A DNA stretch of 42,805 nt from Escherichia phage Shy. The stretch is taken from the sequence record OR996328; one strand, given 5' to 3'. This document shows positions 40,173-40,949 of the stretch, piece by piece; the stretch's first letter is position 1; the number at the start of each line of letters is the position of its first letter. The notes beneath the pieces were generated by a model. That model did no database searches. It had not been told where the DNA came from and was given only the letters and a program-made list of their open reading frames with translations. A program made the translations under genes and the position numbers.

Positions 40173-40201
40173 TTGACGCGTCGGCTAAGTTACCCTAGAA
40201 T
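40173..40201 (+). promoter_or_regulatory. strong sigma70-like promoter
   Basis: TTGACG-17 nt-TAGAAT; followed by a 5'-UTR hairpin (40212-40234) and AAGGAG RBS. Confidence 0.55.
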
Positions 40202-40269
40202 TCAACCCGTACCCCGCCGAATGGTTCGTCGGGGACAACAGTAGAACTTACTTGCAAGGAGTTTTCAAA

Positions 40270-40872
40270 ATGGCTAAACTGAACAAAGCGGCTTCGGAAC
40301 TGCTGGCCGCCATCGTTACCGCAACTACCGGCGACGCCGGTTACGCCTTCGCTTCCGCCAAGGCCGCGAAAGTTCTGGTCGCCGAAGGTCTGGTCGAACA
40401 GAACGAAACCATCACCAACGAAGGGGGCGACTTCGCTACCCGTGCAACCGAAAAGGGCATCGCAGCTATGAACGAACAGAACACCAACCAGAACACCGGC
40501 ACCGAAGGCGCTTCCGCCGCACCGGCCGTCGCATCGAACTTCGCAATCGTCGCCGACGTTGCCATGCCGGGCGCTTCCCGTGGCGGCCGTTCGACCGAAA
40601 CCTACCCGTTCGACAAGCTGGAAAAAGGGCAATCGTTCTTCGTGGCCGCAACCGAAGCCAAGCCGAACCCGGCGAAGTCGCTGGCTTCCACTGTCACCAG
40701 CGCCAACGAACGTTACGCCGAAGAAATCCCCGGCGAAACCCGCACCAACCGCAAAGGCAACGTCGTTCCGGCTACCCGCCAGATTCGCGAATTCGCCGTT
40801 CGCACCGTCGAAGACGGCGCACCGTGGGGCTTCCCCGGCGTCAAGGGCGCGGGCGTGTGGCGTACCCTGTAA
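40270..40872 (+). CDS. hypothetical protein in stand-alone transcription unit (moron-like)
   Basis: 200 aa from ATG 40270 (AAGGAG 8 nt upstream; track start is TTG); own promoter and terminator; Ala-rich, no recognised domain. Confidence 0.5.
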   Translation: MAKLNKAASELLAAIVTATTGDAGYAFASAKAAKVLVAEGLVEQNETITNEGGDFATRATEKGIAAMNEQNTNQNTGTEGASAAPAVASNFAIVADVAMPGASRGGRSTETYPFDKLEKGQSFFVAATEAKPNPAKSLASTVTSANERYAEEIPGETRTNRKGNVVPATRQIREFAVRTVEDGAPWGFPGVKGAGVWRTL

Positions 40873-40916
40873 CGCCGCAACCCCGTAGCAACCGGGGCCA
40901 ATGACGGCCCCATTAA

Positions 40917-40949
40917 AGCCCCCGGCATCGCGTCCGGGGGCTTTTCTTT
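40917..40949 (+). terminator. rho-independent terminator
   Basis: AGCCCCCGG-8 nt loop-CCGGGGGCT followed by TTTTCTTT. Confidence 0.7.

Follow-up and report, generated by a model that had tools for sequence, protein, structure and literature searches.

A conserved promoter–gene–terminator cassette carries a predicted highly expressed DUF7303 gene ahead of the lysis genes in lytic siphophages

The window analyzed here, a stretch of DNA of 42,805 nt considered at its whole length, begins at the ATG of TerS and runs rightward first through the TerS, TerL, portal, head, tail and fiber genes, then leftward through a replication module (polymerase, clamp, helicase, exonuclease, SSB, Sak4 and MazG), and finally rightward again through a primase and ~20 small early/middle genes, after which comes the gene of interest at 40270-40872 (+). 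Beyond this gene lie the genes for a TM/coiled-coil protein, holin, endolysin and spanins, which lead back to TerS. An earlier note on this DNA had placed a single Ala-rich gene of 200 aa between the early block and the lysis cassette, and both the reading frame, with 18.5% Ala in its product, and the location proved correct. The gene is flanked upstream by a 65-aa protein with one N-terminal hydrophobic helix (39972-40169) and downstream, ahead of the holin, by a 147-aa coiled-coil protein that has a TM segment (41033-41476), neither of which gave a Pfam match; the analogue of the 147-aa protein in Ab26 is unannotated, at record positions 1-299. In tblastn the 200-aa product matches Escherichia phage Halfdan_Juelich_variant (PP954860; genus Lokivirus, host Pseudomonas taiwanensis) at 100% and phage Halfdan at 96.5%; the window is the former genome with its ends moved to the small terminase gene.

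Upstream of the gene stands a sigma-70-type promoter, TTGACG-17-TAGAAT (40173-40201, +), composed of TTGACG at 40173-40178, a 17-nt spacer and TAGAAT at 40196-40201. It matches the consensus at 10 of 12 positions, in line with its earlier description as near-consensus, and predicts a transcription start at about 40208-40209. Eight sites in the genome score at least 10/12, and the match alone is thus not unique; what makes the promoter credible is its place in an intergenic gap, 68 nt ahead of the ATG, together with its conservation in relatives. The proposed 5′-UTR hairpin was located at 40209-40236 (+), beginning roughly where the transcript itself is predicted to begin, and is a possible mRNA-stabilizing stem-loop. 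Similar 5′-proximal hairpins are present in Ab26, RcTitan and phiAxp-1 but not in Loki (four of five phages, counting the window), and the family as a whole displays a modest tendency in this direction (mean dG of -4.9 versus -2.2 for shuffles), such that a strong 5′ hairpin across the whole family is weakly supported. The leader in its entirety folds no better than shuffled sequence (z = -0.1). It carries a Shine-Dalgarno sequence, the AAGGAG site that had been noted before, at 40256-40261 (+), 8 nt upstream of the ATG at 40270. Since promoters of 10/12 are not rare and the leader folds like its shuffles, the case for cassette function rests on position and conservation.

The GC-rich terminator with a T-tract that had been called strong is found downstream as an intrinsic terminator (40915-40949, +) with an A-tract, an 8-bp GC stem, an 8-nt loop and a U-tract, TTTTCTTT, the T-tract occupying 40942-40949. 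Its stem, AAAGCCCCCGG / CCGGGGGCTTT at 40915-40944 (inverted repeat I9), is 100% complementary over 11 bp, and in relatives it covaries, with compensatory double changes at 9 of the 11 pairs. A consensus scan had missed this element; a dedicated scan identified it as the strongest canonical intrinsic terminator of the genome. The 3′ region of the cassette folds at -40.3 kcal/mol (z = -2.7), and folding of this region also places a first 3′-UTR hairpin (GGGGCC, a 6-nt loop and GGCCCC) at 40894-40911 (+), ahead of the terminator. At least two hairpins were present in 61 of 61 related 3′ UTRs, a count made without a shuffle control, and the first hairpin was not recovered in the consensus fold of the relatives. 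Elsewhere in the window, a strong intrinsic terminator (GGGCCGG...CCGGCCC followed by TTTTTCTCC, ~10445-10489, +, dG -16.6) lies just past the major tail gene, and in Loki terminators are annotated behind the capsid and major tail genes; the placement of terminators after these genes therefore suggests stepwise attenuation inside the late operon.

Comparison with the record of Halfdan_Juelich_variant, in which window positions of the cassette region equal PP954860 positions plus 2012, also bears on gene annotation. The window is 52 nt shorter than PP954860 (42,857 nt), and it holds TerL (446-2065) and portal (2078-3625) as intact open reading frames where PP954860 has only 'similar to' misc_features at the two ends of the record. 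Two 35-aa CDSs of PP954860 (record 38158-38265 and 38889-38996) correspond to window positions 40170-40277 and 40901-41008; they sit exactly on the promoter/leader and the terminator of the gene at 40270-40872, and both are almost certainly spurious gene calls. Likewise, a 674-aa minus-strand 'hypothetical protein' (record 2588-4612; window 4652-7033, -) lies opposite a 233-aa scaffold-like protein (4745-5446) and a 322-aa major capsid protein (5462-6430) on the plus strand, the latter sharing 66% identity with the phage 73 capsid region. The minus-strand call is an artefact of the long mirror ORFs that arise in GC-rich DNA, and it is because this call covers the capsid region that the PP954860 annotation has no capsid gene. 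A 255-aa minus-strand ORF at 40195-40962 was rejected as the mirror ORF of the GC-rich cassette gene.

The product, which had been described as unrecognized, is catalogued: it matches Pfam DUF7303 (PF23978) over its full length, scoring 206.2 bits where the cut-off is 27 (E = 4.4e-61; positions 6-194 of the 195-position profile), and phrog_7597 with E = 2.1e-58. The description stands insofar as the family has no assigned function. Searches of NCBIfam, PDB sequences and Rfam returned nothing informative, and in the literature searched we found neither a mention of DUF7303 nor a transcriptome for these phage genera. Homologues occur in about 125 phage records, in all of which they are annotated "hypothetical protein", and include members of Septimatrevirus (phage 73, Ab26, Kakheti25, KL1 and DLP1/2), Lokivirus (Loki and IME_AB3) and Titanvirus (RcTitan), Achromobacter phage phiAxp-1, and phages of Sphingomonas, Variovorax, Xanthomonas and Paracoccus. 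A large protein collection contains 757 DUF7303 clusters at 90% identity, and an exhaustive profile search with the C-terminal domain yielded 1,305 clusters at 50% identity with an essentially uniform architecture; these searches revealed no cellular homologues, so that the family is phage-only. Capsid proteins of at least 60% identity were found in 112 records, a count that agrees with the DUF7303 distribution and marks the closer capsid lineage, and the gene is missing from Salmonella, Vibrio and E. coli phages whose capsid proteins are more distantly related.

Synteny is equally constant. The counterparts in Loki (ORF48), Ab26 (ORF52), RcTitan (gp61) and phiAxp-1 (RU58_00035) are syntenic, and the DUF7303 gene always ends the rightward early/middle block, immediately ahead of the lysis, terminase and structural genes. 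In many records it is the last gene before the record end, which prompted the idea of a first-injected terminal gene comparable with T7 gene 0.3; this idea was rejected, the record ends being a convention because the Loki and RcTitan-cluster genomes are circularly permuted. The earlier note had read the locus as moron-like, that is, as a recently acquired accessory gene with its own promoter and terminator. Such a reading draws on the promoter–gene–terminator layout and on the GC content of the gene (62.5%, versus 53.7% for the genome), and we reject it: the presence/absence comparison places the gene in the same context in these records across several genera, where it is universal and vertically conserved together with its signals, its compositional shift parallels that of the capsid gene and is a matter of codon optimization, and the phages that carry the cassette are lytic. 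The layout by itself is insufficient to call a moron. The DUF7303 gene is a core gene of a large lineage of lytic tailed phages (siphophages), not an accessory one.

The expression signals are conserved with the gene. From IMG/VR we took 80 diverse loci, 72 of which were scored against 1,121 control windows of the same loci. A promoter of at least 9/12 within 160 nt upstream was present at 89% of the 72 DUF7303 loci versus 11% of controls, and the separation persisted at higher stringency (64% versus 4% at 10/12 or better; 38% versus 1% at 11/12 or better). Within 150 nt downstream, 82% of loci had a terminator with dG of -15 or lower, against 2% of controls, and 74% of the DUF7303 loci combined a promoter of at least 9/12 with a terminator of dG -10 or lower. 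The spacing of these elements is tight, with a median of 51 nt from the end of the -10 element to the start codon and of 65 nt from the stop codon to the start of the T-tract, and 97% of the related loci have a Shine-Dalgarno match of at least 4 nt. At closer range, five phages whose hosts span alpha-, beta- and gamma-proteobacteria each have a sigma-70-like promoter (8-11/12) 43-68 nt before the ATG and a GC hairpin after the stop codon, and an equivalent promoter is visible by eye in Loki, Ab26, RcTitan and phiAxp-1. The promoter–gene–terminator cassette itself is conserved across the DUF7303 family, and the earlier description of a stand-alone unit is thereby supported. The family was known already; the conservation of its whole expression cassette is new here.

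Codon usage sets the gene apart within the genome. Its GC3 is 0.72, compared with about 0.6 for the genome, and its effective number of codons (Nc 28.2) is the lowest among 41 genes, below SSB (32.1), the capsid gene (35.4) and the tail genes (about 42-45). It prefers the same codons as the capsid gene (CTG, ACC, TTC, AAC, GAC and ATC) and uses them more strictly; at Asn, Asp, Tyr, Phe and Ile, 33 of its 34 codons end in C, versus 404 of 683 in the tail genes (p = 9e-7). The raised GC of the gene is thus due to codon optimization and not to foreign origin, for which we find no support, and the alternative that had been offered beside the moron, a very highly expressed gene, fits these values. 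In Ab26 the DUF7303 gene ranks third of 39 genes in codon bias, above the capsid gene; the Loki gene falls into one group with those for capsid and SSB, and that of RcTitan lies outside the top seven. The terminators annotated in Loki follow the capsid, major tail, SSB and DUF7303 genes, and the genes so followed are classic high-abundance genes. Judged from codon usage and signals, the DUF7303 gene appears to be the most strongly expressed non-structural gene of these phages.

Capsid-like codon bias and a position adjoining the late operon would also be compatible with a virion or assembly protein, whether a decoration, internal or packaging-accessory component, and the phiAxp-1 homologue (AKJ71360.1, 24,092 Da) was indeed detected by LC-MS/MS in a virion preparation (PMC4764938). 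Its emPAI in that preparation was 0.3, against 757 for the capsid protein, and the same preparation held a helicase, a recombinase, an endonuclease and the terminase large subunit (PMC4764938), obvious non-structural contaminants. We conclude that the DUF7303 protein is real and expressed but, being detected at trace level, is not a major structural component. A virion role is further disfavored by the placement of the gene outside the structural operon with a terminator between, by its early-type promoter, by the existence of a separate scaffold gene and by the annotation, which assigns such a role in none of the roughly 125 records; we regard it as highly improbable. Of the possibility, raised in the earlier note, that the gene is a conserved core gene with a known structural role in its relatives, the conservation is borne out and the structural role is not, the phiAxp-1 trace being the only proteomic detection.

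An AlphaFold2 run with a 67-sequence alignment resolves the protein into two confident domains, an acidic winged-helix N-domain (aa 1-73) and a basic alpha/beta C-domain (about aa 110-200), joined by a disordered linker (aa 74-109) that ends in a conserved RGGR motif (aa 104-107). This RGGR/GRGR motif abuts the C-domain, with R107 present in 60 of the 67 sequences and at least two basic residues in 65 of 67, and the residues P113, F114, F123, S140, A145, F175, G193, A194 and R198 are invariant in the alignment. The window protein has the architecture shared by DUF7303 members, namely the N-domain, a variable linker and a C-domain with YPF...GQSFFV...R.F.VR...GA.VWR motifs; among the top 150 representatives the C-domain is always C-terminal, in proteins mostly of about 180-280 aa and in a few of 86-163 aa. 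The charge polarity is likewise a family property, with a median pI of 5.2 for the N-domain (acidic, pI < 6, in 91%) and of 9.9 for the RGGR arm plus C-domain (> 8.5 in 90%).

Comparison with MarR/PadR proteins supports a winged helix-turn-helix fold in the N-domain, which nevertheless missed the thresholds of the MarR/PadR family HMMs (best Pfam E-value 0.009, below the gathering score) and which is acidic instead of presenting the basic DNA-reading surface expected of a MarR/PadR winged helix. It is more likely, on this evidence, to be a protein-contact or oligomerization module than a DNA-reading head. A fold search returned no solved structural relative of the C-domain, and neither sequence searches (Pfam, NCBIfam and PDB, beyond DUF7303 itself) nor fold searches matched the protein to an HU/IHF-type or other known nucleoid-associated protein. 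The pattern of acidic N-terminal and basic C-terminal halves suggests that the basic C-terminal module, comprising the C-domain and the RGGR arm, probably binds nucleic acid.

Directly beyond the terminator lies a putative promoter for the lysis/packaging/structural operon, TTGCGT-17-TATGCT (40948-40976, +), read from sequence and weak at 7/12, whose -35 element overlaps the terminator T-tract and marks the downstream boundary of the cassette. Relatives share a pattern of TTGC(C/G)N-17/18-TATACT, often with TTCGG before it; a -10-like element matching TATACT in at least five of six positions occurs at 45% of 58 loci versus 7% of control windows, and the distance from the start of the T-tract to that of the late -10 falls into two classes, 18-22 nt and 26-29 nt (loci L010-L086). 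The late operon thus seems to be served by a promoter of its own, weak in the -35 element, beyond the terminator, which argues that the cassette is a separate transcription unit. Elsewhere in the genome the late-promoter motif is not significantly enriched (2 matches versus 0.47 expected, with 8 of 100 shuffles reaching at least 2). The second match, TTGCATCGG...GGTTATACT at 39995-40024, falls within the ORF of the 65-aa membrane protein that immediately precedes the cassette. The final base of the putative late -10 element is also where an inverted repeat begins, TATCCGACATTGAA / TTTAATTTCGGATA (40976-41007, 14-nt arms with 86% complementarity and a 4-nt gap); this repeat might act as an operator or form a hairpin in the 5′ leader of the late transcript. 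Several relatives have a CGGAT(T/A)A motif at a comparable position.

This juxtaposition raises the prospect of a late-gene activator similar to T4 MotA, whose C-domain would bind the weak -35 late promoter while its N-domain contacted sigma-70/RNA polymerase and thereby turned on the late operon. Gene position, the polarity of acidic N-domain and basic C-domain, and the adjoining weak -35 promoter are all consistent with this role. In the C-domain, however, no similarity could be detected either to the double-wing domain of MotA or to any other DNA-binding fold, the match of the N-domain to that of MotA is one among about 190 generic winged-helix matches, extreme codon optimization and a consensus promoter would be unusual for a regulator needed in catalytic amounts, and the late-promoter motif is not enriched at other sites in the genome. 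On balance, a MotA-like function is unlikely.

The position of the cassette is identical to that in lambda Q-pR′-tR′-S-R-Rz-Nu1-A, which brings a second form of late control into consideration, one in which the cassette promoter would be pR′-like and the terminator a tR′-like barrier that is read through once a Q-like antiterminator accumulates, the DUF7303 gene being constitutively expressed in the place of the lambda 6S leader. A candidate antiterminator lies upstream at 38526-38933, a 135-aa protein with four Cys pairs (CPRH...CAIC, CPKCKG, CDFCDATG) that is the orthologue of Loki gp45, for which the authors of the Loki study reported a significant HHsearch match to lambda Q (PMC5313236); the additional terminators within the late operon, behind the capsid and major tail genes, would also suit such a scheme. 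In our comparisons the lambda Q homology of this zinc-finger protein was not confirmed: PDB sequences gave no match, Pfam gave only weak zinc-ribbon matches and no antiterminator match, and hhalign against a profile of the lambda Q family reached a probability of 53% over 33 columns. In Ab26 the orthologue is moreover truncated to its N-terminal half (ORF47), and none was found in RcTitan; beyond the terminator there is a separate conserved promoter; and the sole -10-like element of the leader, TAGAAC at 40242-40247, lies at about +34, which is not where a sigma-dependent pause is usually placed. Late control in the lambda manner is therefore very unlikely.

From the observed anatomy, conservation, synteny and codon bias of the cassette, together with the domain architecture and charge polarity of its product, we infer the abundance, timing, nucleic-acid binding and role of the DUF7303 protein. 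Our preferred reading, to which we assign a probability of roughly 0.45, is an abundant, early-expressed, non-structural nucleic-acid-binding protein made from a conserved high-output transcription unit. Host sigma-70 RNA polymerase would start at the near-consensus promoter with no phage activator required, and early and continuing expression is predicted because the host polymerase alone should suffice. The short leader would supply a strong ribosome-binding site and, in the window, a hairpin at the 5′ end, and together with the most optimized codons of the genome the leader and Shine-Dalgarno sequence would maximize output. The terminator would close a monocistronic mRNA and shield the adjacent late promoter from upstream transcription, leaving the late operon to run from its own weaker promoter abutting the terminator. 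The product would be a ~21-kDa two-domain non-virion protein made in very large amounts, whose C-domain and preceding RGGR arm would bind nucleic acid and whose acidic winged-helix N-domain would contact another protein or a second copy of the DUF7303 protein. Most likely it would associate with the phage DNA in abundance, in an architectural or regulatory role that begins early in infection. A more specific version, in which DUF7303 constitutes a new class of abundant DNA-associated protein with a new C-terminal fold and an RGGR minor-groove arm, and either coats or organizes the phage genome or couples its own accumulation to activation of the weak late promoter at its terminator, is doubtful at this stage.

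Predicted early, high expression through the host polymerase would also serve a host-takeover or anti-defense protein that titrates a host protein or signaling molecule, as T7 gp5.5 does with H-NS and as sponge proteins do. Stoichiometric sequestration needs abundance, the N-domain is acidic and the family is confined to phages, all of which would fit. Genes of this kind are typically sporadic and reside in variable regions, however, whereas the DUF7303 gene is universal and syntenic across alpha-, beta- and gamma-proteobacterial hosts that differ in defense repertoire, and the basic C-domain and RGGR arm suggest a nucleic-acid ligand. We consider a titrating role quite unlikely and retain a nucleic-acid-binding protein as the favored reading.

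Pseudomonas aeruginosa, Acinetobacter baumannii, Stenotrophomonas and plant-pathogenic Xanthomonas are hosts of Septimatrevirus, Lokivirus and related phages, and what appears to be the most strongly expressed non-structural gene of these phages is labelled "hypothetical" in every genome. Because it occupies an autonomous cassette over at least 70 diverse loci and is codon-optimized to the level of the capsid gene, DUF7303 is a high-priority target for functional work. The cassette, comprising promoter, leader and terminator, also offers a compact, portable and conserved strong expression unit for engineering these phages.

Set beside Pfam DUF7303 and phrog_7597, the window protein is an ordinary member, with the same two-domain architecture and genomic position and nothing different. 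With phage morons, such as lambda bor/lom and HK97-type insertions, the locus has in common a single gene between its own promoter and terminator near the late/lysis region; morons, however, are sporadic, often compositionally foreign and typically expressed from the prophage, whereas the DUF7303 gene is part of the core of lytic phages and its signals are conserved alongside it. The lambda pR′-tR′/Q region likewise has a strong constitutive promoter followed by a strong terminator, upstream of the holin/endolysin/spanin and then the terminase genes, and the window has a zinc-finger protein reported as Q-like a few genes upstream; it differs from lambda in placing a full protein-coding gene between promoter and terminator and in having a conserved promoter-like element directly after the terminator, where the lambda late genes have no promoter of their own. 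T4 MotA resembles the DUF7303 protein in its length of about 200 aa, its acidic N-terminal helical/winged-helix-like domain, flexible linker and basic beta-rich C-domain, and its origin in a lytic phage, and the DUF7303 gene has a weak -35 promoter beside it. The functional analogy that we favor, one of role and not of sequence or fold, is with phi29 p6, which is unrelated, and SPO1 TF1, an HU-family protein, both of them small, non-structural and very highly expressed early proteins that coat or organize the phage DNA.
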